From positions 1 through 59,852 of the forward strand of contig JALWYU010000047.1 of the NCBI GenBank assembly GCA_026992635.1: DNA of 59,852 nt, read 5' to 3'. This document shows, piece by piece, positions 13,869-50,260 of the stretch. This DNA is from Bacteroidota bacterium. GTDB taxonomy: Bacteria > Bacteroidota > Bacteroidia > JAADEI01. Below the pieces are notes generated by a model. That model saw nothing but the letters and a program-made list of their open reading frames with translations. It made no database searches and was not told the origin of the DNA. The translations under genes and the position numbers were made by a program. How positions within the stretch are numbered: position 1 is the first letter of the stretch; the number at the start of each line of letters is the position of its first letter.

Positions 13869-16800
13869 GGTTTGGCGAGTTCTGGTTGGTTTTCTTCTTG
13901 TTTTTCTGTTGTGTTTTGCTGTGGGGTGGATAGGAGGAGGTTGATGAGTTCGTGGAGGTGGTCGGTGGATAGGCTTTGCCACGTTCTGGAGGAGGGTCTT
14001 TCTGTGATGAGGAGGTTGAAAAGGTGTTGTTTGCGTTGCTGGAGCTGGAGGACCTGTTCTTCAATGGTGTCTTTGGCGATGAGCCGGTAGATGAAGACGG
14101 GTTTTTGTTGTCCGACGCGGTGTGTTCGGTCTGCGGCTTGTCGTTCTATGGCGGGGTTCCACCAGGGGTCTAAGATGATGACGTAGTCGGCGGCGGTGAG
14201 GTTCAGACCGAAGCCACCGGCTTTGAGTGTGAGGAGGAAGAGGGGTGTATTGGGGTCGGTGGTGAAGGTGTGGATGGCTTGCTGGCGTTGTTTGGGGGTG
14301 GATTGTCCGGTGAGGGTGACGTAGTTCCAGCCGTGTTCTTTGAGGAGTGTGGTGAGCAGTTCCAGGGTTTTGAGGAAGCTGGAGAAGATGAGCACTTTGT
14401 GTCCTTCGGCGATGATGTCGGGCAGGAGGATGTGGAGCTGGTCAAATTTTGCGGAGGCGCCTGAGTAGGTGTCATCCAGGAGTTTGGGGTGGATGGCGGC
14501 TTGGCGTAGTCGGAGGAGGGCATTGAGGATTTGCATTCGTGCTTCGTGGAGGTTTTTGGTCTGGAGGAGGTGGCGTACGGTTTGCTGGAAGTGGTGGAAG
14601 GTTTTCTGGTAGAAGGTCTGGTGGTCGGGCGGGAGTGTGCACAGGATGGTGTGTTCGGTTCGTGGCGGGAGTTCTTTGAGGACCATGTCTTTGGTTCGTC
14701 GGAGGATGAGTGGCTGGATGTAGTGGCGGAGTGTTTCCAGTGTACGTGTGGTGTGGCGGGTTGCAGTGCCTTTTTTGATTTTTTGTTCTGCGCTCAAGAA
14801 GAGTTTGGAGAATACGCGGTGTGTTCCGAGTATGCCGGGCATGAGCAGAGACAGTTGTGTCCAGAGGTCGTTGAGGGAGTTTTCAATGGGTGTTCCGGTG
14901 AGTGCGAGTTTGAACTGGGCGTTGATCTGGAGGAGGGCTTGAGCGGTTTTGGATGTCCATTGTTTGACCATTGCTGAGGATTCGTCCAGGATGAGACAGT
15001 GGAAGGTGTGTTGTTTGAGATGGTGGATGTCGTTTCGGACGAGTCCGTAGGTGGTGATGATGAGGTCGGTGTTCTGGAGGTTGAGGGATTGTCGGGAGGA
15101 GCCATCGTAAAGGGTGATTCGGAGGTGTGGTGTGAAGTGGTGGGCTTCGGCTTGCCACTGGTGGACTAAGGATCGGGGTACGACGATCAGGTCGGGGTGT
15201 TCCGGGTGTTTTTCTTCGCGGAGGCTGGCGAGGAAGGCGAGGACCTGGACGGTTTTGCCGAGTCCCATGTCGTCGGCGAGGATTCCGCCGAGCTGGTGGT
15301 CGTAGAGTAGGCGCAGCCAGTAGTAACCTTCTTTCTGGTAGGGGCGAAGTGTTCCGTGGAAGTGTTTGGGCAGGGGGTAGTGTGGTAGTTGCTGGATTTT
15401 AGTGAGTTGCTCATAGCGGGCAAGGTAGGTTGTGGTTTGGGTTTTCCAGTGGAGGGTGACCAGGTCACTGGCTTTGTGGAGGAGTTCAAGGAGTGGGGTG
15501 TTGTGCTGGTGGATGCGGTTGCCGTTCTGGATGAGGAGTTCCAGTTGTTCCAGGAGTTGCTGGAGGGTGGGGTGGATTGTTTTGCGGGATCCGTCTGCCA
15601 GCTGGAGGTACTTTTCGGGTTTGTCTTTGAGGGCTTTCCACTGGTTAAGGGCGTCTATGAGGTCTATGGAGGCGGTCTGGTTATTGGGTAGTTGCCAGGT
15701 GATTGTTCCTGCGAGCTGGAGCCAGTCTATGCCTGATCCTGGTTTGGAAAGTGTGATGTGTACTTGTGGTGGTGTGGGGTTGAGTTGCTGGATCAGGTCT
15801 TCGGGGCAGAATACGTCTATGCCCAGTTTTGCGATTTGGGGAATGTGTTTTTCCAGGAAGGTGATGGGTGGGATGGAGGATCGGACTGGTAGGAGGTAGT
15901 TGCGGTCGCGTCGTGCGTAGGTGAGTCCGGTTTCTTTGTTAGAGGTGAGTTTTCGGTAGATGCGTTTTTCGGCGGATAGGTCTCTTATGACGATGTAGAA
16001 ACGGTCGTTGTGCTTGATGATGTCGGCGTACTGGTTTTGGTTTTGGAAGTCTACTTCTACGGGTCCGTACTGGAATCGGAGTCGTGCGTGGAGTTTGTTG
16101 TTGTGGAGTTCTAAGTAAAGTCGGGCGGTGGGCGTTTCCGATTCAATGACTTTAAAGATGAGGTTGGTGTCTGGGTTCATGAAGGTGATGTTGTCAATGT
16201 CGCGTTTTTTCTGCCCCAGTGTTCGGATGATGTTGATGAATTCGTCTTCGGGGATGATTTTGCCGAGGTGTTGGGTTAGGGGGTTACTGGTTTTGTTGCC
16301 AAAAATTGGATGGGCAACAATAAGTCTGTGAGGATGCAGACGGCTTTCTGAAAGGAGGTAGGCGGCGGTATAGCCTTTGGGGTGTGAACTGAGGGGGTGC
16401 AGGATTTTTGATAGGAAGGCACTTGAGATTTTGAGGAGGAGTCGCTCAAAGGTAAAAAAGTGTTTGCCGTTGGGGTCTTTTCCCAGGTGGACTGCTATGA
16501 TCTGGGAGAATAGGAAGAAGTCGTGGAAAGGCTGGAAGATAAGGAGTCGGTGGTGCTTCGTTTCTTCTTCGGTAACGGGGAGGAGTTGTTTATGGAGGAA
16601 TACGGGGATCCAGTCGTTGGAAGTCATTGCATTCAGGAGTGTATAGAGGAAGTGGGCGAATTCGGTTCGGGGGATGCCTTTTTCTTCGGAGAGGTTGTGT
16701 TCCTGAAAGAACTGCAGGACGGTTTGGAAGAAGCGCTGGGGTTTGTGGATATTGGCGAGAGTGTTTTGGTCTGGTGGGAAGAGTGTTTTAGGTAGTTCGT

Positions 16801-17470
16801 TTTTCTGGAGGCGTTCAGAGATGGTTCGGTGAATCGTCTGTCTTAACCTGATGGGTTTGTTCAAAAGTGATGCGGATATTGTGATGAATGTGGGGTGGGC
16901 GGTCCACAGGTAGGCGTTGAGTAATCGGCTGGCGGAAGGGAGGTCTGTCTGGTGTTGGGGGGGTGCGATGACCAGTGCCCAGATTGTTGCGTCCTTAGTG
17001 GTTTGCTGCTGTTTTTTGGCTTTTTTTCGTTGGGAAGCTTTGGCGGGTTTGGTGGTTTGTTTGTTTTTGGGTTTTTCGCCGCCGTTGAGTCGCTGTACGA
17101 AGGCATGCCATTGGCTTGGAGAAGTATTCCAGAGTGTGTGGATTTTGTCGCGGAGTGCGGCGAGGCGCATTGCGCAAGCCACCTCGTGATAGCAGAGCAG
17201 GTTGTGGGTAGCCTGTGGACAGTTGCATTGTAAGGAGAGCAGATAGTGGTTGTTGTTGGTTTTTACGATGATGCCATGAATGACAAAGTCTTCATTGAAG
17301 GGGTAGTACGATTGGGCGTAGGCGACGAACTCTAATTTCTGTTTGGAGCGCTGTCGGAATTTGCCGAAGCGAATGGTTTTGGGGGATACGGAAGTGAGCA
17401 CATTGCGGAAATTGTCTTTACCCACATGTGTCTGGAGTTCGTGGAGGTCCAGTGGGCATTTGTAGATCAT
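13865..17470 (-). CDS. SNF2-family helicase with N-terminal SWIM zinc finger
   Basis: 1201 aa. The SWIM motif is CNCPQATHNLLCYHEVAC. Helicase motifs are LADDMGLGKT, DESSAM (DExx), and the C-terminal LKAGGFGLNLTAADYVIILDPWWNPAIERQAADRTHRVGQ. Confidence 0.9.
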   Translation of the reverse strand: MIYKCPLDLHELQTHVGKDNFRNVLTSVSPKTIRFGKFRQRSKQKLEFVAYAQSYYPFNEDFVIHGIIVKTNNNHYLLSLQCNCPQATHNLLCYHEVACAMRLAALRDKIHTLWNTSPSQWHAFVQRLNGGEKPKNKQTTKPAKASQRKKAKKQQQTTKDATIWALVIAPPQHQTDLPSASRLLNAYLWTAHPTFITISASLLNKPIRLRQTIHRTISERLQKNELPKTLFPPDQNTLANIHKPQRFFQTVLQFFQEHNLSEEKGIPRTEFAHFLYTLLNAMTSNDWIPVFLHKQLLPVTEEETKHHRLLIFQPFHDFFLFSQIIAVHLGKDPNGKHFFTFERLLLKISSAFLSKILHPLSSHPKGYTAAYLLSESRLHPHRLIVAHPIFGNKTSNPLTQHLGKIIPEDEFINIIRTLGQKKRDIDNITFMNPDTNLIFKVIESETPTARLYLELHNNKLHARLRFQYGPVEVDFQNQNQYADIIKHNDRFYIVIRDLSAEKRIYRKLTSNKETGLTYARRDRNYLLPVRSSIPPITFLEKHIPQIAKLGIDVFCPEDLIQQLNPTPPQVHITLSKPGSGIDWLQLAGTITWQLPNNQTASIDLIDALNQWKALKDKPEKYLQLADGSRKTIHPTLQQLLEQLELLIQNGNRIHQHNTPLLELLHKASDLVTLHWKTQTTTYLARYEQLTKIQQLPHYPLPKHFHGTLRPYQKEGYYWLRLLYDHQLGGILADDMGLGKTVQVLAFLASLREEKHPEHPDLIVVPRSLVHQWQAEAHHFTPHLRITLYDGSSRQSLNLQNTDLIITTYGLVRNDIHHLKQHTFHCLILDESSAMVKQWTSKTAQALLQINAQFKLALTGTPIENSLNDLWTQLSLLMPGILGTHRVFSKLFLSAEQKIKKGTATRHTTRTLETLRHYIQPLILRRTKDMVLKELPPRTEHTILCTLPPDHQTFYQKTFHHFQQTVRHLLQTKNLHEARMQILNALLRLRQAAIHPKLLDDTYSGASAKFDQLHILLPDIIAEGHKVLIFSSFLKTLELLTTLLKEHGWNYVTLTGQSTPKQRQQAIHTFTTDPNTPLFLLTLKAGGFGLNLTAADYVIILDPWWNPAIERQAADRTHRVGQQKPVFIYRLIAKDTIEEQVLQLQQRKQHLFNLLITERPSSRTWQSLSTDHLHELINLLLSTPQQNTTEKQEENQPELAKP

Positions 17471-17599
17471 GGCAGGCGATTCTTGTTGTTGCCGGGTCAG
17501 TCTGTTTTTTCAGATAAGTTAAAGCCGGAGGGAGAGGGAACTTTTATTGTGATCCAAGGTCTTTTTGAAAAAGAGAGCCGGTTTAAAAATGGAGGAGTC

Positions 17600-17782
17600 A
17601 TGTGTAACGTAGGGAAGGTGGATCGTGTGGTTCGTGCGGTGATGGGGTTGGGGTTGCTTGGGCTGGGTGCGTACTTGAAGTGGCACTGGTTACCGTTGGT
17701 GGCGGGTGGAGTGTTGCTGTTGACGGCGGTGCTGAGTTTTTGTCCGTTGTATAAGTTGTTTGGGTTGAGTACGTGCAGGTAG
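17600..17782 (+). CDS. DUF2892/YgaP-like small membrane protein
   Basis: 60 aa beginning MCNVGKVDRVVRAVMGLGLLGLGAY and ending LSFCPLYKLFGLSTC, preceded by GGAGGA 5 nt upstream. The ORF-track start at 17426 is an upstream extension. Confidence 0.6.
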   Translation: MCNVGKVDRVVRAVMGLGLLGLGAYLKWHWLPLVAGGVLLLTAVLSFCPLYKLFGLSTCR

Positions 17783-17801
17783 GGGTTTTTGTGGGCTGGG
17801 T

Positions 17802-17891
17802 TGGCGTGGGCGTTGGGCGCTGGCTTGCAGGGAGTTGTGGCGCCGTACGGCGCCACAACTCCCTGCAAGCCAGCGCCCAACGCCCACGCCA
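17802..17891. repeat. Perfect 90-bp palindrome (two 45-nt arms with no spacer)
   Basis: I paired every position i with 35693-i from 17802 to 17891, and all 45 pairs are Watson-Crick. The centre is GGCGCCGT|ACGGCGCC. The outer arms contain tandem GGCGT(T)G units. Confidence 0.95.
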
Positions 17892-17912
17892 GAAAAGAAA
17901 AATCCCAAGAAT

Positions 17913-18860
17913 ATGGTTTTGTGGACACTTCGCTGGCAGGGTAATGTTTCGGTAGCGACTTTGGTGGCTTTTGGAGTCGGATTGATTTTCGGGTTGGCTG
18001 CTTGTCAAGGTGGGTCGGAGTCGAGTGCTGAGCAGCAGAAGGAGGGTGGTTCCTCGTCTTCGGAGGCGGTATCGCAGGGAGGCAAGGCTGGGCATATCAT
18101 TTCTGGTGAAGAACGGTATGTTCCGTTTGAATTGCGTGAGGAGCCGGTCTCGCCTGAGCAGCTCTGTGAGATTTTGGATGGGCTGGTTTTACCGGAGGCG
18201 GTAAAGCAGCTGTTGATGGAAGGGATAAAGGTTTCGCAGTCGGATTATTGTGCGCGGATGAACAATGGGCTGAAGACGAACCAGCTGCCGATACCGGACA
18301 TAATAGAAGAAACTTTTCAGAGCATTCGGAAGCATCATCCTGAATTGCTGGTGTATGCGCGCACGGAGTGGACGAAGCAGGTGGAGGTTGCCCAGGCAAT
18401 CATATTGCGGTTTATTCGGTTGCCCAATTTGATGGTGGAGATTGTGTTTGTGCCGCAGGGTTTGTCGTCTGTTGTGGAGGCTGAGGTGAAGGTTTTGCAT
18501 GATCTGAATGCGGATAAAATCTGGAAGTACGATTATGTGGTTGGCGTTTTGGAGCCTGTTGCGCAGGAGATTGCCAACCAGTTGAAATTGCAGCAGCAGC
18601 CCATACTGCGCTCGTATGAGAATGGCGCGATTACTTACACGTATTCGGTGCCACCGGATCAGCAAACTGATCAGCTGGTTGCGCAGCTCCGTGATTATTT
18701 AGAGCGGACGGGCTGGCAGAATATTGACTATGCGTCTATGATGGGTGTCACTGCGCTGGAAGCAGAAAAGGAGGGTGTAAAGTTGACGATGGGTGATGTG
18801 AGGGACTTGATGCTGCAAAGTAATGCGATGTTTACGTTTGTGTTGCAGGTCAAGGAGTAA
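17913..18860 (+). CDS. Hypothetical lipoprotein
   Basis: ATG 17913 gives MVLWTLRWQGNVSVATLVAFGVGLIFGLAAC, a signal peptide with an LAAC lipobox, followed by a Ser/Gly/Glu-rich linker. The ORF-track start at 17835 lies inside the palindrome. Confidence 0.6.
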   Translation: MVLWTLRWQGNVSVATLVAFGVGLIFGLAACQGGSESSAEQQKEGGSSSSEAVSQGGKAGHIISGEERYVPFELREEPVSPEQLCEILDGLVLPEAVKQLLMEGIKVSQSDYCARMNNGLKTNQLPIPDIIEETFQSIRKHHPELLVYARTEWTKQVEVAQAIILRFIRLPNLMVEIVFVPQGLSSVVEAEVKVLHDLNADKIWKYDYVVGVLEPVAQEIANQLKLQQQPILRSYENGAITYTYSVPPDQQTDQLVAQLRDYLERTGWQNIDYASMMGVTALEAEKEGVKLTMGDVRDLMLQSNAMFTFVLQVKE

Positions 18861-18880
18861 AGTGGGGTGGAGGGGGAGCG

Positions 18881-19459
18881 TTGTGTTGTGCCCAAAGGTT
18901 GTCCTGCATGCTGGATTTGTTTGGTTTTCGGGTGCATGTTGTGTTTTGGGTAGGGGAGTTGGGCGGGCACTTATCGGGTTTGGGGAGCACGTCATCGGTG
19001 GGTGTACCGGTTCTGGCGTATGCCTGGCATTTTGGCCGGGAGAAAGCGTGGGAGCACCTTCACAAGATTGCGGAATATCATAGTCTGGAAGGCAGGTCGG
19101 TAGAATCGCCCAACCTGGAGTGCTGGTTAAAGGACTGGCTGCAAAGAGTTGTTATTCAGGGCAGTCAGTTTTCGCTACCACCTGTTGGGTACAGGCATCG
19201 TGAGGTTTACGAAGCGGTGCTTCAGATTCCGAAGGGCAGGACAAGGACTTATAGCGAAGTTGCCCGACAAGCACAGGTCCCATTCCCTACTTTACTGAGT
19301 GCGTTGATGCGAAATCCGTTTCAGGTTTTGATACCCTGCCATCGGCTGGTGACGCGTAAGGGTACGTTGATGGGGTTTTACCCGCTGGGTAAACCGGTGA
19401 AAGCACGGTTGCTGGCGGTGGAGGGTACGTATACTGGTGCGGACTTAGGGGTATCATGA
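18881..19459 (+). CDS. ogt: Methylated-DNA-protein-cysteine methyltransferase (Ogt/Ada C-terminal domain)
   Basis: The active site reads IPCHRLV, preceded by TYSEVARQA. The N-terminal start is uncertain. Confidence 0.8.
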   Translation: MCCAQRLSCMLDLFGFRVHVVFWVGELGGHLSGLGSTSSVGVPVLAYAWHFGREKAWEHLHKIAEYHSLEGRSVESPNLECWLKDWLQRVVIQGSQFSLPPVGYRHREVYEAVLQIPKGRTRTYSEVARQAQVPFPTLLSALMRNPFQVLIPCHRLVTRKGTLMGFYPLGKPVKARLLAVEGTYTGADLGVS

Positions 19460-19475
19460 GTAGGGAAGCGCGGTA

Positions 19476-21233
19476 TTATGGGCAAGCTTGCTGTAAAGTC
19501 CCATGTGTACCGGCTGTACCAGAGAAATTGTAGGTGTTGACGGTGGTGCTGGATGGGAGAGCAACGTTGCTGGGCGAGACGGGCCAAGTTGTGATGTATG
19601 AAGCCGATTCACTGAAGCAACCCGAAGTACATGTTGTGCTGCCATCAGGATTCAGGACAATCACCAGGAAATCCGTACTGCCGTTGCCAAAAGAAGTGGT
19701 TCTTCCTAAGATAACAATGCGCTGGTTACTGGTTTCACCGATAGTAATGCCCTGATCATCACCATTTCCGCCAATGATTCTTGCCCATTTGAGGTTTCCG
19801 TTGGCATCCAGTCGGGCAACGTATACGTTATTACCGCCTTGTGTTCCTCCATTTGTAGTTGCTGTGACTAAAATGTCTCCATTAGAAGCAACGTAGCCCA
19901 TACCGGATGAATAGGAGGGTAACCATTCGGAGGAAGCGGCGGTTGCGCCTAATCGTTTTGCCCAAATGACATTTCCGGACAGGTCTATCTCTATGACTTT
20001 GATATCGCTGGATTCAATGCCTGCTGCAACGATATTACCGTTTGGGGCTTCGCCCAGCCAGTAGAAGGTTCCGCTTCCGTATTGCTTACACCATGCTGGT
20101 GAGAGATTCGCGTCGTACTGACAGATGTGTCCGTTGACACCTGCTGTGAATAGAGTACCATTCGTGTGTTTCTTTACTGCCCAGGGTCGGCTGTAAGAAA
20201 AAGCGGCTGTGATATTGATTGTAGAGAGATCCACTATAATCAGCTGTCCGGAAGCATCACCCACTGCGATTTTGTTGTTACCGAGGTACTCTATCGTTGT
20301 ACCCCAGGATATTGGATCCAGATAGTAAGTGTTTCCGATTGTATTGCCCGTGTTTGCATTGATTCTTACAAGGTAGTTACTCCATCCTCCAATGCCTATA
20401 GGGATCCATCCGGTTATGACATAATATCCTGCAGGTATTTTCTCTATACCTACAGCGGCATCCCAAGAGCCGTAGTCCATGGTGTATGTCCAATTCACTG
20501 TGCCTGTTGTGAGATCAACCTTGGCTACATATATATTTGTGCTGCCCGAACCACAAGAATTGCATTCACCGATCAGGACAGCATATTGTCCATCAATCAT
20601 ACCTGTATAGAGGAAGTCTTGTCCGGAGCCACCGATTGCCAGGCAGTATCCAATGCAAGAATCAGCCGTCACAGAAAGAGAAGTTGCCATACCGCATCCA
20701 CACTGGTTGCACACTTGAACACCAATTGTTCCGTCAGTTGTATCCGGTAAGACTTGCAGGGTTGCAGTACCTTGTCCGTTCAGCATTGTCCACCCAGGAG
20801 GCGTTTGCCAAAGGTATGTTGCTCCACCAGGACAGTCGCTTACTGTATACATGATCGTATCCCCGGTACAGGCAAAGGAGGGTCCATTAATTGTAGGTGT
20901 ACATGTGGGCGGCTGGCACAGTCGTGGGCAGGAGATGGTGTACCATTGATGTGTGAGCGTGTCGTAGACTTCTAAGCAGAAGGAGTCAATGTTGAAGATG
21001 ATGAGGGTGTGATCAGGGTTTTGAATAGCATTGCGTTGCTGTGTGGTGAGACGGGGTATAAGAAGCCCGCGTGAAGTATCCTGAAGTTCTAAGAGGGCAG
21101 TGGGTGCAGGATTTGTAGTGCCGATGCCGACGTTTTGTGCGAGGGTGGGTTCAGTCAGGCATGGGTAGAGCAGAACAGAGAAGAGAAGAGAAGAGAAGAG
21201 TAGAGTAGAGTAGAGTAGAGTAGAGTCTCCTGC
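19476..21233 (-). CDS. Secreted-protein paralog 1: shared N-terminal module plus Cys-rich linker plus propeller-like repeat domain. It currently has no in-frame start codon (phase-OFF or a pseudogene).
   Basis: My translation upstream of the track ORF (M at 20852) stays open to the TAA at 21234-21236. It reads AGDSTLLYSTLLFSSLLFSVLLYPCLTEPTLAQNVGIGTTNPAPTALLELQDTSRGLLIPRLTTQQRNAIQNPDHTLIIFNIDSFCLEVYD.... There is no ATG, GTG or TTG in those 127 codons. Confidence 0.7.
   Translation of the reverse strand, partial: AGDSTLLYSTLLFSSLLFSVLLYPCLTEPTLAQNVGIGTTNPAPTALLELQDTSRGLLIPRLTTQQRNAIQNPDHTLIIFNIDSFCLEVYDTLTHQWYTISCPRLCQPPTCTPTINGPSFACTGDTIMYTVSDCPGGATYLWQTPPGWTMLNGQGTATLQVLPDTTDGTIGVQVCNQCGCGMATSLSVTADSCIGYCLAIGGSGQDFLYTGMIDGQYAVLIGECNSCGSGSTNIYVAKVDLTTGTVNWTYTMDYGSWDAAVGIEKIPAGYYVITGWIPIGIGGWSNYLVRINANTGNTIGNTYYLDPISWGTTIEYLGNNKIAVGDASGQLIIVDLSTINITAAFSYSRPWAVKKHTNGTLFTAGVNGHICQYDANLSPAWCKQYGSGTFYWLGEAPNGNIVAAGIESSDIKVIEIDLSGNVIWAKRLGATAASSEWLPSYSSGMGYVASNGDILVTATTNGGTQGGNNVYVARLDANGNLKWARIIGGNGDDQGITIGETSNQRIVILGRTTSFGNGSTDFLVIVLNPDGSTTCTSGCFSESASYITTWPVSPSNVALPSSTTVNTYNFSGTAGTHGTLQQACP
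21172..21225. repeat. Pentanucleotide tandem repeat: 4 x AGAAG then 5 x AGTAG on the + strand (CTACT/CTTCT in the gene sense)
   Basis: Counted directly: AGAAG x4 at 21179-21198 and AGTAG x5 at 21199-21223. The tract encodes the hydrophobic core of the signal peptide of paralog 1. Confidence 0.95.
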
Positions 21234-26181: not shown

Positions 26182-27621
26182 TTGAACTACTTTGAAGAAG
26201 TCCAGAAACTGTATCCGGATAAGAAACTGCAACTCAAGTACGTGAATGGTTCCTGGCATGTCCATGCCTACCAGAGCTGGTGGGACAAAGAGAAGAAACG
26301 CCCGGAGAAAACAGAGGAGTATCTTGGCACTATCAAAGAGGACGGTTTTCACCCACGCAGAAGGAGGTATCCCGGGCGGAAAAAGGGAGTGGAAATGGAG
26401 AAGGTAGAGGGGAGACTGATCGTTCGGGAGCGCAGTTGCGAATATGGCGCCAGCCAGGTATGCAGGCATTTTCTGGAGGGAGCCTTAGAGGGTTTGAAGG
26501 ATCAGATAGAAGAAGAGCGTGCGAAGGCGCTGGTGGGATTGGCGGTGCTGTGGGCTGTACATGGGTATGTGCCCCTGAAGAGGGTGGCGAGTGTGTGGGA
26601 GGACACGTGGTTGAGCCGGATGTGGGAGGAGGTGCGCATGGATGGCAGGAGGCTGTCGGAGTTACTGAGGCTGGTGGGCAGGCGAGTGGGGTTGCGCGAC
26701 CACGTGTGCGGCTACTTGCTTATGCGTTCTGGCAGTTCACGGATTCTGTACGACCTCACGCATGTGTTCACCTATTCAGAGGGTGTGCTGGATGGTGAGT
26801 ATGGCTGGAACGCAGAGAGGAGGTATGCGCCGCAGGTGCGGGTGAGTGTAGTCCATGATGGAGAAGGAGTGTTTCACATAGAGGCGTGGGCGGGCAGTCA
26901 AAGGGAAATAGCGGTGTTGAAGGCGTTGAAGGAGGGGCTGGAGCCTTATCTGGAGCGCAAGCAGGAGCTGGTGCTGGTCAGCGACAGGGGCATTGCCTCT
27001 TACCAGATGGCGGTAGATCTGCACCAGGAGGGGTTGAAATTTGTGATGCCTTTGCGCAAAAACTTCAGTATCATAGACTACATGCGAAGTTTTGGGGGGC
27101 ATTTCGCTATCAAGACAGACAGAGTGATTGCATGGAGTGAGCGAGAGGTGGAACTGCACGGCAACAAGATGCGTCTTTTGCTGTTTTGGGATACGAAACT
27201 TGAGGGAGAGCAAAAGCAGATGTGGCTGAACAGATACGAAAGAGGGGAGTTGGGCAAACAGGATGTGGAGGAGCGTTTTGTTCAGTGCGGGAAGATAGCC
27301 CTACTCACCAACACTTCTTTTTCTGCCGAGGAGGTATATTCGCTCTACAAGAGTCGTGCCTCCATAGAGGAGTGCATACGCCGTTTCAAAGACGCCCTGA
27401 ACATGGAAGGCACATATATACGCGACGACCACGCACTGGCTGGCTACTTCTTTGTGCTCTCCCTTGCGATGCCACTATGTGCTGATGCAAAAGCTAAGGG
27501 ATACCAAATTGCTGAAGCACTACAGTGTACAGGATGCCATCTGGGAGTTGAGAAAAATCCGGAAGGAGCCATGGATAGATGGCTGGCATCTTCGTCTCTT
27601 TACCAGAAGACAAAACCTTGA
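26182..27621 (+). CDS. IS4/IS1634-family DDE transposase (TTG start). The C-terminal end is possibly frameshifted.
   Basis: DDE candidates are ILYDLTH, LVSDRGI and the Y-x2-R-x3-E-x6-K signature YKSRASIEECIRRFK. After about 27478, alternative frames read ...LLKHYSVQDAIWELRKIRKEPWIDGWHL and LIEKLGLRTILGIN. These look like the usual family C terminus, which suggests one or two frameshifts. Confidence 0.8.
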   Translation: MNYFEEVQKLYPDKKLQLKYVNGSWHVHAYQSWWDKEKKRPEKTEEYLGTIKEDGFHPRRRRYPGRKKGVEMEKVEGRLIVRERSCEYGASQVCRHFLEGALEGLKDQIEEERAKALVGLAVLWAVHGYVPLKRVASVWEDTWLSRMWEEVRMDGRRLSELLRLVGRRVGLRDHVCGYLLMRSGSSRILYDLTHVFTYSEGVLDGEYGWNAERRYAPQVRVSVVHDGEGVFHIEAWAGSQREIAVLKALKEGLEPYLERKQELVLVSDRGIASYQMAVDLHQEGLKFVMPLRKNFSIIDYMRSFGGHFAIKTDRVIAWSEREVELHGNKMRLLLFWDTKLEGEQKQMWLNRYERGELGKQDVEERFVQCGKIALLTNTSFSAEEVYSLYKSRASIEECIRRFKDALNMEGTYIRDDHALAGYFFVLSLAMPLCADAKAKGYQIAEALQCTGCHLGVEKNPEGAMDRWLASSSLYQKTKP

Positions 27622-27981: not shown

Positions 27982-29832
27982 TTAAGGACAGATGTTGGTG
28001 AGTGTTCCGCCGGAGGAGGTGGATCCGCCGGAGCTGGTGGTGCCGCCTGAGCTAACTGTGCCGCCTGAGCTGGTAGTTCCGCCTGAGCTGACGGTTCCGC
28101 CTGAGCCAATCTGGCATCCGCCGGGACAATTTACTAAGTTGCCCTGGGCGTCAAGTTTGATTACGTAAATATCGTTGCTGCCAGCGCCAAAGGAGCTGGT
28201 ATACCCTGCAATGGCATAACCGCCGTCATTCGTCTGGATGATGGAGTTGCCCCTATCATTGTTTGCTCCGCCAATAGTTTTTGTCCACTGGAGAGTGCCG
28301 GAGGCATCCAGTTTTATTACATAAACATCGCCGCCAGCGCCAAAGGAGTTGGTATACCCTGCGATGACATAACCGCCGTCATTCGTCTGGATGATGGAGT
28401 TGCCTCCATCATCGTTTACTCCGCCAATAGCTTTTGTCCACTGGAGGGTACCGGAGGCATCTAGTTTTATTACATAGACATCATAGCCGCCTGCTCCAAA
28501 GGAGGTGGTATATCCTGTGATGATATATCCGCCATCGTTGGTCTGAATGATGGAGAATCCCAAATCGCGAATTGAGCTGCCGCCGATGGTTTTAGTCCAC
28601 TGTAGATTACCCTGCGCATTCAGCTTTACCACATAGACATCGTAGAAGCCAGCGCCAAAGGAGTTGGTATACCCTGCAATGGCATAACCGCCGTCATTCG
28701 TCTGAATGATGGAGTAGCCCAAATCGTTACTTGCCCCGCCAATGGCTTTGGTCCACTGCAGGTTACCGTTTGCATCCAATTTCACGACATAAACATCAGC
28801 ACCATCTGCGCCGAAGGATTGAGTCCGCCCAACAATAGCGTAGCCGCCGTCGGTGGTCTGGATGATGGCTTGCCCCGCATCGTAATTTGCTCCACCGATG
28901 GTTCTGGTCCACTGGAGGTTGCCGTTTGCGTCCAGTTTGACGACATAGACATCGTAGCTGCCTGCGCCGAAGGAGGCGGTGTATCCAGCGATGGCGAATC
29001 CGCCGTCGGTGGTCTGGATGATGGATTGACCATAGTCGTTATTTGCCCCGCCGATGGTTTTAGTCCACTGTACATTGCCTGAGCCATCCAGCTTTACCAC
29101 ATAAACATCCTGCCCTCCCTGCCCAAAGGAGTTGGTATACCCTGCAATGGCGTATCCGCCATCATTCGTCTGGATGATGGAGTAACCAATATCGCTATTT
29201 GTTCCGCCAATGGCAACGCAAAAAGCGTTGCATGAGTCGGCGGAGACGGAGATAGAAGTGGCGTTGGCGCATCCGCACTGGTTGCAGGGTTTGACGGAGA
29301 CCATTCCATCGGTGGTGTCAGGAATGACGCGCAGTGTGTCCGTGCCCTGTCCGGAGAGGATGATCCAGTTGGGCGGGACTGTCCACTGGTAGGTGGCGTT
29401 GGGGCAACCCGAAGCGATGTAGGTGGTGGTGTCGCCGGTGCAGGCGAAGATGGGTCCGGAGATGGTGGGTGAGCAAGCGGGTGGCTGGCAGAGTCGTGGA
29501 CAGGAGATGGTGTACCACTGTTGTGTGAGTGTGTCGTAGACTTCTAAGCAGAAAGAGTCAATGTTGAAGATGATGAGGGTATGTGCGGGGTTCTGGATGG
29601 CGTCGCGTTGCTGAGTGGTGAGACGGGGTATGAGGAGTCCGCGGGTGGTATCCCAGATATCTAAACGAGCAGTGGGTTCGGGATTTGTGGTTCCGATGCC
29701 GACGTTTTGTGCGAGGGTGGGTTCAGTCAGGCACGGGTAGAGCAGAACAGAGAAGAGAAGAGAAGAGAAGAGAAGAGAAGAGAAGAGAAGAGCCCTTCGC
29801 GTATGGAATGTTGTGTATTTGGGGCGGTGTTC
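27982..29832 (-). CDS. Secreted-protein paralog 2: shared N-terminal module plus eight ~47-aa SBBP-type beta-propeller repeats plus an SSGGT(V/T) tail. It currently has no in-frame start codon (phase-OFF).
   Basis: The frame is open from 29832, directly after the TGA at 29835-29833. It reads EHRPKYTTFHTRRALLFSSLLFSSLLFSVLLYPCLTEPTLAQNVGIGTTNPEPTARLDIWDTTRGLLIPRLTTQQRDAIQNP.... The first ATG/GTG/TTG in frame is at 29304. The repeat unit is GGxNxDxGxSIIQTxDGGYAIAGYTxSFGAGxxDVYVVKLDxxGNLQWTK. Confidence 0.75.
   Translation of the reverse strand, partial: EHRPKYTTFHTRRALLFSSLLFSSLLFSVLLYPCLTEPTLAQNVGIGTTNPEPTARLDIWDTTRGLLIPRLTTQQRDAIQNPAHTLIIFNIDSFCLEVYDTLTQQWYTISCPRLCQPPACSPTISGPIFACTGDTTTYIASGCPNATYQWTVPPNWIILSGQGTDTLRVIPDTTDGMVSVKPCNQCGCANATSISVSADSCNAFCVAIGGTNSDIGYSIIQTNDGGYAIAGYTNSFGQGGQDVYVVKLDGSGNVQWTKTIGGANNDYGQSIIQTTDGGFAIAGYTASFGAGSYDVYVVKLDANGNLQWTRTIGGANYDAGQAIIQTTDGGYAIVGRTQSFGADGADVYVVKLDANGNLQWTKAIGGASNDLGYSIIQTNDGGYAIAGYTNSFGAGFYDVYVVKLNAQGNLQWTKTIGGSSIRDLGFSIIQTNDGGYIITGYTTSFGAGGYDVYVIKLDASGTLQWTKAIGGVNDDGGNSIIQTNDGGYVIAGYTNSFGAGGDVYVIKLDASGTLQWTKTIGGANNDRGNSIIQTNDGGYAIAGYTSSFGAGSNDIYVIKLDAQGNLVNCPGGCQIGSGGTVSSGGTTSSGGTVSSGGTTSSGGSTSSGGTLTNICP
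29744..29792. repeat. Pentanucleotide tandem repeat, 8 x AGAAG (+ strand) = CTTCT x8 in the gene sense
   Basis: Counted directly: 29751-29790 is eight perfect AGAAG units, flanked by CAGAACAG and AG. The flanking sequence is the same as at 21171-21178. Confidence 0.95.
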
Positions 29833-30142: not shown

Positions 30143-31558
30143 TCAATAATAGATGACGACTCTGCCATTGCCACCTTTTTGCCCGTAGGTGTAGCAGGCT
30201 GTTGCGCCGGTGCCGCCCTGGGCACAACCTGGGCACAGGTCGGGATCGCCGGCATTGCCTGGTGTGGTGCCGGCTCCGGGCAGGATGATACCTGTTGGAT
30301 TCAGGACGAAGCTGTTTCCGCCGGCGCCGCCTCTGGCGCCACAGTCGCCAGAAGAACCGCTGCATGAGCTTCCGCAGGTGGTTGCCCCGCCGGTTCCGCC
30401 TGCGGATGCGCCGCCGCCCCCGCCTCCGCCGCCGGGTCCGTCGGCTCCACAGCTTGCTCCGGGTGTGCCGGCTGGTGTGGGTGCGGCACCGGTGTTTCCG
30501 CCGGCGGCGCCACAGGCACCGGCATTGCCATTTTGTCCGCCAGCACCGCCATGGCCACCTGCACCGGAGCAACCACTACCGCCGCCACCACCTCCGCCGG
30601 CGGCGGCAACGACCAAGGTACCATTGATAAGGACTGCTGAGCTGCCTCCGCCGCCACCGCCACCCCCTGACCCTCCTGAGGGTCCAGCCTGTCCACCATT
30701 GCCACCGTTGCCATAGCCCCATCCACCTGTTCCACCCGGGGCACTGGAACTACAATACCCGCCATTTCCGCCTTCGCCCACATAAATGGTCAAAGTATCG
30801 CCGGGATTGACTGCGATGGTATCGCTGGCGTAGGCGCCTCCGCCACCGTTGCCACCGGGGTTGCCACCGTCCACGCCGCCTCCGCCACCACCGGCGCCCC
30901 ATGCTTTAATCACAATGCATGAAACACCGTTGGGGACTATCCACTGCTGAGGGGCGCCAGTATAGTCAAAATAAAGCGCCTGGGGTGGTGATGTGGATAT
31001 GGTCAGGCAGGTCTGCGTGTTTGTACAGGAATCTGTGACGCAGAGTTGTCCTGATTGGAATGTGTCAGGGAAGAAGATACGGACGGAATCGGAGCCCTGC
31101 CCTGCTACGAGTATTGCTCCGCCGGAGACTGACCAGTGTTTAGTGATCAGACAGCCCTGCAAGACAAAGAGAAGTGTGTCGGGCAAACAAATCTGTTGCA
31201 GGGTAGTGGGTCCTGTAATGGCGACGGAAGTGCCGGTACATCCCCAGGGTGGAATGGTCACCCATTGCGTGCCATCCCAGTACTGGAACACCCGACAATC
31301 ACGGTTGTAAATAAGCAGGGCATTTGCGGGATTGACAATGGTGTTGCGTTGCTGCGTAGTAAGTCTGGGGATGAGTAGTCCGCGAGAGGTGTCGTGGATG
31401 TCTAGTCGGGCGGTGGGGTCGGGGCTTGTAGTGCCGATGCCTACGTTCTGGGCGAAGTTTACGGGGTTTGTGCAAAGGATTGCGGAGAGCCAGAGGGTAG
31501 TGGTCAGTATGTGGAGTTGTTGTAGAAGGGATGCGTGTGTGGTGTGGGTGGTGGTCAT
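30143..31558 (-). CDS. Secreted-protein paralog 3: shared N-terminal module plus a glycine-rich (GGxGG) C-terminal domain. This copy is intact.
   Basis: It reads MTTTHTTHASLLQQLHILTTTLWLSAILC...AQNVGIGTTSPDPTARLDIHDTSRGLLIPRLTTQQRNTIVNPANALLIYNRD, followed by WGAGGGGGGVDGGNPGGNGGGGAYA...IYVGEGGNGG and long Gly runs. There is no tandem repeat at its 5' end. Confidence 0.8.
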   Translation of the reverse strand: MTTTHTTHASLLQQLHILTTTLWLSAILCTNPVNFAQNVGIGTTSPDPTARLDIHDTSRGLLIPRLTTQQRNTIVNPANALLIYNRDCRVFQYWDGTQWVTIPPWGCTGTSVAITGPTTLQQICLPDTLLFVLQGCLITKHWSVSGGAILVAGQGSDSVRIFFPDTFQSGQLCVTDSCTNTQTCLTISTSPPQALYFDYTGAPQQWIVPNGVSCIVIKAWGAGGGGGGVDGGNPGGNGGGGAYASDTIAVNPGDTLTIYVGEGGNGGYCSSSAPGGTGGWGYGNGGNGGQAGPSGGSGGGGGGGGSSAVLINGTLVVAAAGGGGGGGSGCSGAGGHGGAGGQNGNAGACGAAGGNTGAAPTPAGTPGASCGADGPGGGGGGGGASAGGTGGATTCGSSCSGSSGDCGARGGAGGNSFVLNPTGIILPGAGTTPGNAGDPDLCPGCAQGGTGATACYTYGQKGGNGRVVIYY

Positions 31559-31627
31559 GGTGGTTTGGGATTTGGGGTGGTGGTTGTTAAATAAAGTTAA
31601 GGGGTTTTGGGGGATTTTTGGTTTTTG

Positions 31628-31723
31628 GGGGCGTTGGGGCGTTGGGCGCTGGTTTGCAGGGGGTTATGGCGCCGTACGGCGCCATAACCCCCTGCAAACC
31701 AGCGCCCAACGCCCCAACGCCCC
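31628..31723. repeat. Perfect 96-bp palindrome (two 48-nt arms), same family as 17802-17891
   Basis: All 48 pairs (i with 63351-i) were checked and are Watson-Crick. After one unpaired G (31627), four more pairs follow. It shares the core GCGTTGGGCGCTGG-N-TTGCAGGG-N-GTT-N-TGGCGCCGT with the first palindrome. Confidence 0.95.
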
Positions 31724-31790
31724 AAAACCAAAAAACCAATCCAATCCTCCATAACCCCACACACCTGTAAGTTGGTAAAAAAGTCCAGCG

Positions 31791-41975: not shown

Positions 41976-43313
41976 TCAGGGGTTTGGTGGCGTTATCCGT
42001 GCGTTTGCATATAACGAGCTTGCTTCCAGAAGTTTTTTCAGTGTGGGCAAAGCCTGTTTTTGGAAGTGGTCAATCAGTGCAGTGAAAGGCTTGGGCACCT
42101 CCTCAGGAAACGATCCCATCAAAAAGCCCTTAAAGAGGAGCAGGTAAGCCTGTGCTTCGGGGATTCCTCGTGTTCGCATGTAGTGCAGGAAGGGCTGGGT
42201 GGGAAAGCCTGTCACTGCGCCATGTGTGCATCGCACCTGGTCAGCAAGGATTTCCAGCTGGGGTAATTCGTGGACGGTTGCGTGTTCCGAGAGCGGAATC
42301 CATCGTGCTGATTGGTAGGCACTTGTCTCCTGAGCCCGGGGATGGACAAAGATTCGTCCCTGGAAAGTGCCGGTTTGATGCCAGCCCACTACTCCGCGAA
42401 CTTCCTGGTTGCTGGTAGTTGTCGGTGCCATATGCAGGAGGTGGGTGACTAAGGCGAGGTGGGCATTGGGTCTGTCGGAGAGGCATCGTGCGGTGAACTG
42501 GCTCTGGCTGTTCGGTTCACTTAGCCAGAGCATTCGCCGGAAAAGTACATGGTTGCCTGTCGTGTTGAGGAGGTATTCGTTCCAGGTGGCGTGTTCGCGG
42601 ATATCCACAGCCAGGTGATGCAGGAGTAATGGGGGAGTAGTGGTGTGGGAGAGATGCCACCAGGAGACGTGCGCATCTTTTGCTAAGTGCGCTTCTATGA
42701 CTATGTGGGCAGGGTGATGCCCCACGATGTGTTCTAAGATTGCTACGTGAGCATTTTTTCCGACGGTCAATTGCAGGCGATAGGCGGTCAGGGGTATAGC
42801 TCGCTGAGGGCTGTCCGCATGCCAGATTAACGCCAGCTGAACGTTTGCCCGGTCAGGAATTTCCATCTGGATGACGTGCTCTAAGTGGAGGGTGTTGAGT
42901 GCGATGAGCCAGTCGCGTTCTGGAAAGAGCAGGGCGTTACGGTTCTGGAGTGTGTTGTGGTCTGGCGGCAGTGTTCGGAGTGTAACTGGTGTGTGCAGGG
43001 CTTGTTGTGTGCTGGCGTGTGGGGAGTCTTGCCAGTGTGCGCCCCGGGGTGTGATCACGATAGTGGGCAGAGGTAGGGCGGGCGAGATGGACAGGAGGCT
43101 TCCATTGGGGGAGGAGGGTTGTTCGGTCAGGTGGGTGAGCCAGCGCCAAACCGGGATGCGTCGCCAGTCTTCTTCGCGGGGGGAAGGTGGAGGAAGCGTT
43201 TCCAGTAGCGTACGGATTTCTGCCTGGAAGGGTGTGAGGGGTTCTATTTGGAGGAGGTGGTGGAGCTGGCGTCGTGTTTGCCGGATGAGGCGCAGTGTTC
43301 GTTCGGGTTGCAT
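41976..43313 (-). CDS. sufD: Fe-S cluster assembly protein SufD
   Basis: 445 aa, positioned after sufB-sufC. The C-terminal beta-helix region has LSDRPNAHLALVTHLLH...GRIFVHPRAQETSAYQ...LEILADQVRCTHGA. Confidence 0.85.
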   Translation of the reverse strand: MQPERTLRLIRQTRRQLHHLLQIEPLTPFQAEIRTLLETLPPPSPREEDWRRIPVWRWLTHLTEQPSSPNGSLLSISPALPLPTIVITPRGAHWQDSPHASTQQALHTPVTLRTLPPDHNTLQNRNALLFPERDWLIALNTLHLEHVIQMEIPDRANVQLALIWHADSPQRAIPLTAYRLQLTVGKNAHVAILEHIVGHHPAHIVIEAHLAKDAHVSWWHLSHTTTPPLLLHHLAVDIREHATWNEYLLNTTGNHVLFRRMLWLSEPNSQSQFTARCLSDRPNAHLALVTHLLHMAPTTTSNQEVRGVVGWHQTGTFQGRIFVHPRAQETSAYQSARWIPLSEHATVHELPQLEILADQVRCTHGAVTGFPTQPFLHYMRTRGIPEAQAYLLLFKGFLMGSFPEEVPKPFTALIDHFQKQALPTLKKLLEASSLYANARITPPNP

Positions 43314-43362
43314 TCAACTGTTTTTTTGTGGGTTTCAGGGTTGTGGGCAGGAATCTGGTGGT

Positions 43363-44145
43363 TCACCGGGATTCTGTGGGTGCGTGCAGGTCCTGGAGGA
43401 TGGCTTCATAGCCGCGGCGCTCTACTTCTACAGCCAGTTCGTAGGTGCCGGACGCGACGATTTTGCCATCTACTAAGAGGTGGACGCGATCGGGCTTGAG
43501 GAATTCCAGGATCCGGTAGTAGTGGGTAATGACCAGGAAGCCGCGCTGGTTGTCGCGCAGTCGTTCTACGGCACGGGCAATCAGTTTCAACCCGTCAATA
43601 TCCAGTCCGGAGTCGGTTTCGTCCAGGATGATCATTTTGGGCTGGAGGAGGAGCATCTGGAGGATTTCGTTTCGTTTGCGTTCGCCGCCTGAGAATCCTT
43701 CGTTGACGTTACGGGAGATGTATTCGTCGCTACCGAGGAGTTCTCGGGCGAGTGTTCGGATTTGTTTGAGGAGTTCTGTAGTGGGGATGGGTTCTTTACC
43801 CTGGGCGGCGCGCGTTTCGTTGACGGCGGTCCGGAGGAATTCTATCATGGAGACGCCGGGCAGTTCTACGGGGTGCTGGAAGGCGAGGAAGAGACCGAGG
43901 TGGGCACGTTCTTCCGGGCTGAGTTCCAGCAGATTTTTCTCTTCCAGATGGACTTCGCCCTGGAACACCTGGAATTCAGGGTGACCTGCCAGGACATAAG
44001 CCAGTGTACTTTTTCCGGAGCCGTTGGGTCCCATCAGGGCGTGCATTTCGCCGTGGGGGATTTCCAGGTTGACGCCCTTTAGGATGGTGTGGTCTTCGGT
44101 TCCCGCATGCAGGTTTCGGATACTGAGTAGTGGTTTCTGGTTCAT
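43363..44145 (-). CDS. sufC: Fe-S cluster assembly ATPase SufC
   Basis: Has Walker A GPNGSGKST, the signature FSGGERKRNE and Walker B ILDETDSGLD. Confidence 0.9.
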   Translation of the reverse strand: MNQKPLLSIRNLHAGTEDHTILKGVNLEIPHGEMHALMGPNGSGKSTLAYVLAGHPEFQVFQGEVHLEEKNLLELSPEERAHLGLFLAFQHPVELPGVSMIEFLRTAVNETRAAQGKEPIPTTELLKQIRTLARELLGSDEYISRNVNEGFSGGERKRNEILQMLLLQPKMIILDETDSGLDIDGLKLIARAVERLRDNQRGFLVITHYYRILEFLKPDRVHLLVDGKIVASGTYELAVEVERRGYEAILQDLHAPTESR

Positions 44146-44185
44146 GGCTTATGTGGTTTGACGGTTTTGGGGATGCTCATTGGGT

Positions 44186-45628
44186 TTAGCCTACGCTGCC
44201 TTCCAGGCTGATTGCCAGGAGTCGGCGGGCTTCAATGGCGAATTCCATAGGGAGGTGCTGAAGCACTTCTTTGCAGAATCCGCTGATCAGCAATTCAATG
44301 GCTTTTTCGTCGTCCAAACCTCGTTGTTTGCAGTAGAAGATCAGTTCTTCGGCAAGTCGTGTGGTGGTGGCTTCATGTTCTACGATGGCATCGGGTCGGT
44401 GCACTTCAATGACGGGAAACGTATTTGCCTGGCAGGTATTGCTCATCAGCAGTGAATCGCATTGTGTATAGTTTTGGGCTTTTTCTGCGGAGGGCAGGAT
44501 GCGGACCATACCCCGGTAGTTGTTGACGCTAAAATCGGCGGAGATTCCTTTGGATACGATTCGGCTGTGGGTATGTTTGCCAATGTGGATCATTTTGGTA
44601 CCGGTATCGGCTTGTTGTCTGCCCCGGGTGACTGCCACCGAGTAGAATTCTGATTGGGAGTAGTCGCCTTTGAGGATGGTGCTGGGGTATTTCCAGGTGA
44701 TGGCGGAGCCGGTTTCTACCTGAACCCAGATAATTCGGCTGTGTTTGCCTGCGCACAGTCCGCGTTTGGTGACGAAGTTGTAGATACCGCCTCTGCCGTG
44801 TTCGTCGCCTGGATACCAGTTCTGGACAGTGGAGTATTTGATGGTGGCGCCTTCTAAGGCGATGAGTTCCACGACTGCTGCGTGCAGCTGGTTTTCGTCG
44901 TACATAGGTGCGGTACATCCTTCCAGGTAGCTGACGTAGCTGTTGCGGTCGGCGATAATGAGGGTTCGTTCAAATTGACCGGTTTTGCGGGCGTTGATCC
45001 GGAAATAGGTGGAGAGTTCAATTGGGCAGCGGACGCCCGGTGGGATGTACACGAAAGATCCGTCGGTGAATACGGCGGAGTTCAGTGCGGCGAAGAAGTT
45101 GTCGCCGGGTGGGACGACCGATCCCAGGTATTGGCGGACTAAGTCGGGGTATTCGCGAATTGCTTCAGAGATAGAGCAGAAGATGATGCCCATTTCTTTG
45201 AGTTTCTTCTGGTAGGTGGTGGCGACGGATACGCTGTCCAGGACGGCATCTACAGCGACGCCTGCCAGGATCTTCTGTTCTTCTAAGGGGATGCCCAGCT
45301 TTTCAAAAACACGTCGGATTTCGGGGTCAACTTCGTCTAAGCTTTTGTATCGGGGTTTGTTGCGGGGTGCGGCATAGTAGTGCATGTCCTGGTAGTTGAT
45401 GGGTGGGTAGAAGACGTTTGCCCAGTGGGGTTCTTCCATTCGTTTCCAGGTTTGGAAGGCTTTGAGTCGCCACTGGAGCATCCATTCGGGTTCGTCTTTT
45501 TTTCGGGAGATGAGTCGGATGATGTCTTCGTTGATGCCGGGGGGTGCCAGTTCTTCGTCAATGTTGGCGGTGAATCCCCATTTGTAAGGTTGGTTGAGGA
45601 CGTTGTGGAGGACTTCTTGTTCGCTCAT
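44186..45628 (-). CDS. sufB: Fe-S cluster assembly scaffold SufB
   Basis: 480 aa, highly conserved SufB-like sequence throughout, for example [21 protein letters not shown] and [21 protein letters not shown]. Confidence 0.9.
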
Positions 45629-46782: not shown

Positions 46783-46795
46783 TGGCTTGCTTCAG

Positions 46796-49143: not shown

Positions 49144-49231
49144 GAATCTGGCATTTGGGAGGGTTGGGTTTGCTCTCCTTGGGTGGTTTTTCATACACAA
49201 AGTATTGTACACGGGTTTGTTGTCGGATTGG

Positions 49232-50257: not shown

Positions 50258-50260
50258 GGT

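Follow-up and report, generated by a model that had tools for sequence, protein, structure and literature searches.

The stretch analysed here, called the window throughout, covers positions 1 to 59,852 of contig JALWYU010000047.1 from the Bacteroidota draft genome GCA_026992635.1. At positions 17802-17891 it carries a 90-bp palindrome, the arms of which (17802-17846 and 17847-17891, 45 nt each) are 100% complementary with 0 nt between them, just as had been described in an earlier note made from the sequence alone. Arms like these have a chance expectation of about 1e-21 in 2.13 Mb. The palindrome sits between two genes on the plus strand, and for the upstream gene the earlier assignment to DUF2892, with a stop at 17782, was confirmed by a match of window 17600-17779 to PF11127 (YgaP-like_TM, formerly DUF2892; E 3.7e-20). 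The downstream open reading frame (ORF) starts at 17913, where the start of a lipoprotein gene had been placed, and its N-terminus, judged from the sequence, resembles a lipobox (..GLAAC); a Pfam search with the putative lipoprotein (17913..18860) returned no match. The palindrome is copy 1 of a repeat family that is described below, and copy 2 of this family lies in the same window. The features are as follows, with the strand given where one applies:

17600..17782, plus strand: DUF2892 / YgaP-like transmembrane gene, 60 amino acids from the ATG at 17600, with its TAG stop (17780-17782) 19 nt upstream of the palindrome
17782..17801: left outer flank GGGGTTTTTGTGGGCTGGGT of copy 1, containing the 5' T-run of the family
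17802..17891: family copy 1, a perfect spacerless palindrome with 45-nt arms, identical in ENA scaffold L041
17819..17840, plus strand: left-arm half-site GCTGGCTTGCAGGGAGTTGTGG (family core GCTGG-N4-CAGGGAGTTRKGG), from the half-site search of the genome
17853..17874, minus strand: right-arm half-site, conserved and read on the minus strand, from the same search
17892..17906: right outer flank GAAAAGAAAAATCCC of copy 1, the A-run partner of the T-run, doubling as the A-rich leader of the downstream gene
17913..18860, plus strand: putative lipoprotein gene, 315 amino acids, with its ATG at 17913, 21 nt past the palindrome
31628..31723: family copy 2, a perfect palindrome of 48+48 nt between divergent genes, with the apex CGCCGTACGGCG in common with copy 1
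31596..31755: extended imperfect outer arms of copy 2, 80 nt each and 83% complementary, with T-runs in the left arm and A-runs in the right one

Beyond the perfect arms of copy 1 the left flank pairs with the right flank in part only, leaving an outer stem that is not symmetrised, in which GGGGUUUUU pairs with AAAAAUCCC across an internal loop in the RNA fold. The fold of the palindrome with its immediate flanks (window 17775-17920) had a predicted energy of -116 kcal/mol (z -13), and a gapped alignment of the outer flanks of copy 2 gave a z of 6.4. The mirror-image ORFs previously reported over copy 1 (17690-17908 on the minus strand and 17773-17955 on the plus strand) were both found, with one peptide common to the two. 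The tandem GGCGT(T)G units that had been described for the outer arms are present in copy 1 (about 2.5 units) but are no general property of the family, the other copies having a different G/T-rich tract.

Further copies were looked for in the whole genome, a 2.13-Mb draft resembling a metagenome-assembled genome (MAG), of 114 contigs and 82.5% completeness, and the palindrome proved to belong to one family with an estimated 30-40 loci, so that the copies which the earlier note had proposed to count do exist. The half-site GCTGGNNNNCAGGGAGTTRKGG occurred 81 times with 3 or fewer mismatches, compared to 8 times for a reversed-pattern control. Perfect hairpins with arms of at least 12 nt numbered 32 in the whole genome and 24 of these carry the family core; among the 8 that do not, at least 3 (on contigs C64, C12 and C71) resemble truncated ends of the family. 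Eleven copies are internal to contigs, and their total length of 90-124 bp is made up of two arms of 45-62 nt and a centre of 0-3 nt. Read from the outside towards the axis, the half-unit begins with a T-run, followed by a G/T-rich tract that varies (often ..GGGGCGTTCGGC, or ..GCGCAAGTG in one subfamily), by a conserved core and by a GC-rich apex, also variable, that is most often built round CTGCAG. Positions of the core, GCTGG-N4-CAGGGAGTT-RKGG, are 91-100% conserved among 51 arms, and its distance from the axis ranges from 6 to about 20 nt among copies, while the 40 distinct arm sequences have a median pairwise identity of 0.70 and a maximum of 0.98. The conserved core resembles a recognition motif, which agrees with the earlier suggestion of a recognised element, and it is probably the binding site of a protein, either a mobilising enzyme or a host factor. 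Two perfect palindromes on contig C108 (46786-46870 and 60495-60564, with arms of 41 and 34 nt) have a T-run followed by a G-rich arm and no CAGGGAGTT core; they may be centre-deleted members of the family or a second family.

The 11 contig-internal copies contained 0 mismatches in 569 bp of arm and no G-T pair, although the strand skew of this genome (see below) implies a strong C-to-T pressure, to which 282 G-C pairs are exposed. Selection at the RNA level would tolerate G-U pairs, and as none is present the symmetry must arise at the level of DNA. Complementarity was at chance directly outside the perfect arms in 9 of these 11 copies, ruling out for those nine that they are long ancient arms in slow decay. 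The centre was self-complementary in 17 of the 24 core-carrying copies, where about 1 in 16 would be expected for free loops; mismatch repair of a hairpin cannot yield such a symmetric centre, because the bases of a loop are unpaired, whereas it can result from a template switch during replication in which one arm is copied across the axis. Between copies 1 and 2 there are three mirrored transitions and a mirrored difference in length in the repeat units of the outer arm.

A sister MAG, GCA_027048825.1 (ENA assembly ERZ23495399), was reached via P0002, an ortholog of the putative lipoprotein that is 80% identical and lies at the same junction, where an ortholog of the DUF2892 gene is found beside the same neighbour. 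This genome has about 51-52% GC, skews of +0.30 and -0.25 on two contigs, and palindromes of the family. At the DUF2892-lipoprotein junction (sister contigs L032/L033) its palindrome has arms of 43-46 nt and a 2-nt centre, and comparison with copy 1 gave 7 substitutions and 5 indel columns per arm (75% identity), between a DUF2892 coding sequence that is 92% identical and a lipoprotein-gene start that is 83% identical. All of these differences are mirrored but for one base at the outer edge. A second pair, anchored by the synteny of its flanks (C49:17213-17302 and L034:4707-4800), also has 7 substitutions and 5 indel columns per arm, with both palindromes perfectly symmetric, giving 12 mirrored difference columns per arm in each pair and one unmirrored base in total. 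The sister species therefore have different yet symmetric sequences at the same sites, one half having evidently been copied from the other. The instability that the earlier note had expected of such palindromes is not seen, as they persist at orthologous sites in the sister species despite an sbcD-sbcC operon (C67:5180-10293) that appears intact, with GDxxD/GNHD, Walker A, CPICG zinc hook and LSGGE motifs; the absence of SbcCD was accordingly rejected as the cause of their tolerance.

Next to the second pair, the CapA gene and the palindrome of the sister genome are 3.5 kb apart (L034:1149-4706, compared to C49:17303-17328), with two genes for surface proteins (PTL_trimer/Kelch/PKD) in the gap, whereas on C49 of this genome CapA directly abuts the palindrome, the difference in the gap marking an accessory-gene indel with a family palindrome at one border. 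A further family element of the sister genome (L034:1-56) stops 6 nt upstream of the CapA start codon. The 3' end of C49 stops 18 nt upstream of the CapA start, within a GGTTTTGGG tract, and probably holds a family element too.

The position of the copies relative to genes was counted on greedy ORF calls (1,657 genes, 90% coding). Of 44 arms with a gene no more than 250 nt away, 33 point towards the 3' end of that gene (49% expected, p = 4e-4), and in 29 of these 33 a stop codon lies 23-50 nt before the core, meaning that the symmetric zone begins at the stop or a few bases past it. Between 5 and 6 of the 11 internal copies lie between convergent genes, with 0-27 nt left per side, convergent regions making up 14% of all intergenic regions; arms facing a gene start in this genome leave 21-76 nt free. 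At the C62/C66 locus (C62:1-60 and C66:15990-16083) the identical arms reach 26 nt upstream of the core, beyond the TGA, and the convergent genes there, encoding an NTP-transferase (PF00483) and a membrane protein, are unrelated and yet both end in VGWV-TGA because the arms of the palindrome encode their tails. Here the element supplies or overwrites coding tails and stop codons, and the symmetric zone would seem to spread outward until selection halts it. Palindromes were also modestly over-represented (odds ratio 3.5, p=0.02) at the 3' ends of genes of the secreted SprB-repeat / beta-propeller family, which has 71 members and makes up 4% of the genome (for example window 19476-20852, 27982-29304 and 30143-31558). 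This family provides the sole recurrent neighbours of the elements, and no small DNA-binding gene was found to recur beside them.

The exact paired pattern of the element was found in none of 40 relatives, and in collections covering 185,579 species plus metagenomes its only matches were three isolated hairpins that are unrelated to it, in Micromonospora, in a Chloroflexia MAG and in a metagenome contig. Family-level relatives had the half-site at background counts only. In 45 kb sampled from the relatives G001-G005 there were no long hairpins, and these genomes (51% protein identity, about 41% GC, no skew) are too distant to inform on empty sites; GCA_013153515.1 (‘Chlorobi bacterium’; CapA 72% identical, 41% GC) has no palindrome at the CapA junction. 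An imperfect hairpin on metagenome contig Ga0315532_1018405 (L013:300-385) adjoins a tRNA gene, is built of repeated GGGAGTTAGGG / CCCTAACTCCC units and has a motif as in the family core; it may be due to chance or be a distant relative of the family.

We hold, with moderate confidence, that the window palindrome is a copy of a lineage-specific family of intergenic hairpins resembling REPINs (hairpins of paired repetitive extragenic palindromic, or REP, sequences), kept symmetric by copying from arm to arm at the DNA level, through template switching. The common architecture of the family, the symmetry of each copy, the preference for positions after stop codons and the retention at orthologous sites are observed directly. 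During replication, a template switch within the element and across its axis would copy one arm from the other, and a new substitution or indel in one arm would quickly be erased or mirrored. The symmetric zone would grow from the centre until it met either sequence kept fixed by selection (coding sequence or a downstream gene's leader) or an indel too large for pairing to continue. In read-through transcripts the stem, at -116 kcal/mol for the window copy and its flanks, would block 3'-exonucleases and insulate the neighbouring genes, as REP elements do. In E. coli, template switching is known to turn quasipalindromes into perfect ones (PMC7202029). It can both generate and preserve perfect stems, with compensatory changes of several bases among its products (PMC8794818), and it is the mechanism put forward for Nematomorpha mitochondria, the perfect palindromes of which are actively maintained (PMC6649704). 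Compensatory changes are common in the spacers of REPINs (PMC3116915). The family has the features of inverted repeats maintained by template switching, namely mirrored differences that include indels and a symmetric loop, and also the architecture of REPINs, in that it is extragenic and multicopy and has a pair of conserved units, inverted relative to each other, that form a hairpin round a variable middle. We refer to it as a REPIN-like, self-symmetrising palindromic repeat, its closest concept being the REPIN and its closest behaviour that of the Nematomorpha mitochondrial inverted repeats.

A number of points weigh against this reading. No mobilising enzyme was found for the family: a six-frame search of the assembly, which is incomplete and broken at the elements, gave no match to the RAYT/Y1 HUH transposase family PF01797 at E<=0.01 (the control was positive in 6 of 14 genomes), no reverse transcriptase and no IS110-type gene were found in the genome, and three IS4-type DDE loci had only chance 9-10-mers in common with the element consensus (E>=0.96). 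The idea of a RAYT or IS200-type gene, raised in the earlier note, finds no support in this assembly, within the limits of its completeness. Direct repeats indicating target-site duplication were absent from the edges of the perfect arms of the 11 copies, where the true ends are blurred by outward symmetrisation. SbcCD attacks long perfect palindromes in E. coli and causes their loss, and the seemingly intact SbcCD of this bacterium would be expected to attack such hairpins as well. The orthologous pairs were no more alike than random paralogues (ranks 5 and 24 of 40, identity 0.68-0.75 compared to the median of 0.70), which keeps replacement by another family member live beside change in place. 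In addition, the sister comparison consists of one genome and few contigs (GCA_027048825.1), the effect of the element on RNA is one that we infer, and the symmetry of the arms is known from assemblies alone.

With regard to this last point, a fold-back in the de Bruijn graph, or collapsed arms that make an imperfect repeat seem perfect, might be suspected from the many copies that lie at contig ends, cut about 27 or 37 nt beyond the centre. About 36 of the 228 contig ends fall inside a family element, but these ends form pairs (C35/C52, C36/C92, C40/C101, C62/C66, C98/C104 and C4/C5) in which identical arms (the core plus 18-30 nt upstream of it) are followed by different flanks, and this is exactly the pattern of a real palindrome longer than the k of the assembler. 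The 11 contig-internal copies have unrelated flanks on either side, and from locus to locus the core stays conserved. An ENA scaffold from a separate assembly (ERZ23491050:scaffold_3551, or L041, 21.8 kb) is 100% identical to window 14426-20782 (6,357 nt), palindrome included, and a Logan k=31 contig (L036, from SRR14510437) begins at window 31694, that is 31723-30+1, the branch point predicted from the end of the perfect palindrome of copy 2 at 31723. The sister-species palindrome at the orthologous site occurs in two more assemblies which differ from each other by a single-nucleotide polymorphism, and by the logic of assembly graphs a mismatch between arms eases assembly and therefore would not be erased by the assembler. 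On three lines of assembly-level evidence (contig-end pairing, the ENA scaffold and the Logan contig) the artefact against which the earlier note had cautioned is thus very unlikely, to the point of being barely worth entertaining. We consider it doubtful, though deserving of attention, that copies are instead replaced by members that are already symmetric, by gene conversion between loci or by excision and site-specific re-insertion, or are born perfect by fold-back synthesis from a single-stranded half. Such turnover would fit the lack of extra similarity between orthologues, the existence of subfamily structure and the copies that have the same inner 40 nt with different outer arms (C46, the 5' end of C49 and both ends of C16). 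It merely shifts the problem, however, since the donor copies must stay symmetric too; no two loci are identical, while replacement should leave identical pairs; a reverse transcriptase for a fold-back route via cDNA is missing; and the three mirrored transitions between copies 1 and 2 resemble point changes. The divergence of the flanks (80-86% protein identity) implies that neutral sites are saturated, so the signal of orthology is expected to be lost under evolution in place as well.

It also appears unlikely to us that this is an ordinary REPIN/REP family mobilised by a RAYT, the gene for which would be absent from a draft that is fragmented and 82.5% complete. REPs normally bracket their own RAYT gene, and a gene so bracketed would here end up in short contigs lost in binning; with so many contig ends inside elements, short element-flanked contigs could well be missing. 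The architecture, the extragenic location, the quasispecies-like cloud of variants, a few of them nearly identical (maximum arm identity 0.98), and the vertical persistence all fit REPINs (PMC3116915). Against a RAYT stand the lack of a PF01797 match and of a conserved tag: of the GTAG and CGTC tags that define two REP superfamilies (PMC3733652), the former lies 60 nt or less upstream of the core in 9 of 51 arms, mostly as part of a neighbouring gene's stop codon, and the latter in 0 of 51. A GTAG/GTGAG sequence at the outer edges was considered as a tag and rejected, as it represents the stop codons of flanking genes and is absent where no gene ends. Moreover the half-unit is not itself a small palindrome, there is no spacer, and REPINs as described are imperfect hairpins. 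A host-selected RNA element, either a bidirectional terminator or a stabiliser of mRNA 3' ends, with its pairing kept by selection on RNA structure, seems more improbable still. The elements do lie flush behind stop codons, with 75% of arms facing 3' ends, they are enriched between convergent genes, their stem is extremely stable, and as canonical terminator-like sites are not enriched in the region (22 found compared to 22.9 expected) another 3'-end device could be needed. However, a run of four or more T is found 5' of the arm in 36 of 51 arms and an A-run there in 1 of 51, so that a transcript of either strand reads U-run, stem and A-run, the inverse of terminator polarity, and a terminator consensus scan did not call the element. 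A canonical intrinsic (bidirectional) terminator was rejected on these grounds, there being no 3' U-tract, and the ‘very strong terminator’ of the earlier note is likewise not supported. There are also just 30-40 or so loci for roughly 1,650 genes, and a quarter of the arms face gene starts, some 21-43 nt upstream of the ATG and one in the sister genome at 6 nt. G-U pairs, which RNA selection permits, number zero in 569 bp, and the loop is symmetric, which is not needed for RNA folding. A search of Rfam 15 gave generic miRNA-precursor hairpin matches only, all below gathering scores.

Three further classes of element were tried and rejected. Derivation from resident IS4-like elements, as a miniature inverted-repeat transposable element (MITE), was dismissed because the transposase loci share nothing with the element. 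Integron attC sites, which are imperfect palindromes with extrahelical bases and form arrays of co-directional cassettes beside intI, do not agree with copies that are perfect, dispersed at 1-3 per contig and mostly between convergent genes (intI was not searched for). Nor does a protelomerase (telRL) junction, for which one or very few sites and recognition boxes at a fixed distance from the axis are expected, agree with tens of loci and a core-axis distance of 6 to about 20 nt (the protelomerase gene was not searched for).

Among known systems, REPINs with their RAYTs (Bertels & Rainey 2011, PMC3116915) are likewise dispersed extragenic repeats of two inverted conserved units, with a variable hairpin middle that shows compensatory changes, and they too form a population of variants round a consensus and persist vertically for long times at fixed loci. 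The family described here differs from them in having no detectable RAYT, no GTAG/CGTC tag, no spacer and a half-unit that is not a small palindrome, in arms that are perfectly complementary over 45-62 nt and symmetric through the axis, in its copy number of only tens and in its host, which is of a Bacteroidota/Chlorobi-type lineage. The ‘coding palindromes’ of Nematomorpha mitochondria (Mikhailov et al. 2019, PMC6649704) are similar in that many long inverted repeats remain 100% identical while their sequence changes, can overlap coding sequence, lie in a genome of strong strand asymmetry and have been attributed to template switching. They are, however, mutually unrelated in sequence and without a common core, mostly inside genes, usually spacered and organellar, whereas the present family is a single sequence family with a conserved core, mostly intergenic, in a bacterial host. 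Template-switch mutation at quasipalindromes (E. coli thyA/lacZ reporters, PMC7202029; the template-switch mutation model, PMC8794818) accounts for mirrored substitutions and indels, for multi-base changes in one step and for perfect stems including the centre. It is known, though, as a mutational process at short (10-20 bp) quasipalindromes. To our knowledge it has not been described as the mechanism by which a genome-wide family of 90-124-bp palindromes is maintained. MITEs and Correia, ERIC or RPE-type elements are also small, non-coding and dispersed, with inverted repeats near gene ends that are sometimes read into coding sequence (RPE, ERIC), but they lose arm identity with time, which this family does not, and here no target-site duplication and no parent insertion sequence with the same ends were found. 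Bidirectional intrinsic terminators have a GC-rich hairpin between convergent genes right after stop codons in common with the elements, and are unlike them in that here the tracts stand in the opposite order (U 5', A 3'), the stem exceeds that of terminators 5-10 times in length, and the copies have a common sequence core and lie in some cases upstream of genes.

The family means that a free-living bacterial lineage with an apparently intact sbcDC operon keeps tens of perfect palindromes of 90-124 bp at the same loci across species, and it amounts to a genome-scale natural experiment on the concerted evolution of inverted-repeat arms. Mirrored substitutions and indels, symmetry at the axis and its extension into stop codons and coding tails are countable at each locus, which makes the template-switch model directly testable in bacteria. 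About one contig break in six in this MAG is due to the elements, which also create mirror-image false ORFs and false C-terminal tails and in this way affect the assembly and annotation of such genomes. If a protein recognising the core were found, REPIN-like partnerships between host and element would extend past the RAYT-bearing Proteobacteria.

The genome also has a strong strand bias. In the window, positions 1-22000 and 42000-58000 show extreme bias that is independent of gene orientation (GC skew to +0.47 and AT skew to -0.42 in 2-kb windows), and genome-wide the absolute skew exceeds 0.3 in 32% of 2-kb windows. The C/A-rich strand encodes proteins with a high content of H/Q/T/P, and the G/T-rich strand proteins with a high content of G/V/W/R. 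The sister genome has the same bias and family-level relatives are without it. That the palindromes are switch points of the strand skew was rejected, as the sign of the skew is the same on both sides beyond +/-200 nt. We regard it as a long shot that the palindromes and this mitochondrion-like bias are two faces of one replication mode, in which one strand stays single-stranded for long. On the exposed strand the elements would snap into hairpins, shielding their C-rich arm from the deamination that makes the skew, and this hairpinning would make arm-to-arm copying frequent and the symmetry perfect. The hairpins with their core might then act as dispersed priming or loading sites for the second (lagging) strand, for which mitochondrial OriL and the single-strand origins of rolling-circle plasmids would be analogues. 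The one observation speaking for such a replication mode is that skew, raised GC and palindromes occur together in this genome and in that of the sister, and that all three are lacking in family-level relatives, which have 41% GC and little or no skew. The sole stretch of negative skew in the window (22-26 kb) ends just upstream of an ORF for an IS4-type DDE transposase (26182-27621; PF01609, 51 bits), which suggests that this stretch is foreign or inverted DNA; the transposase ORF is unrelated to the palindromes.

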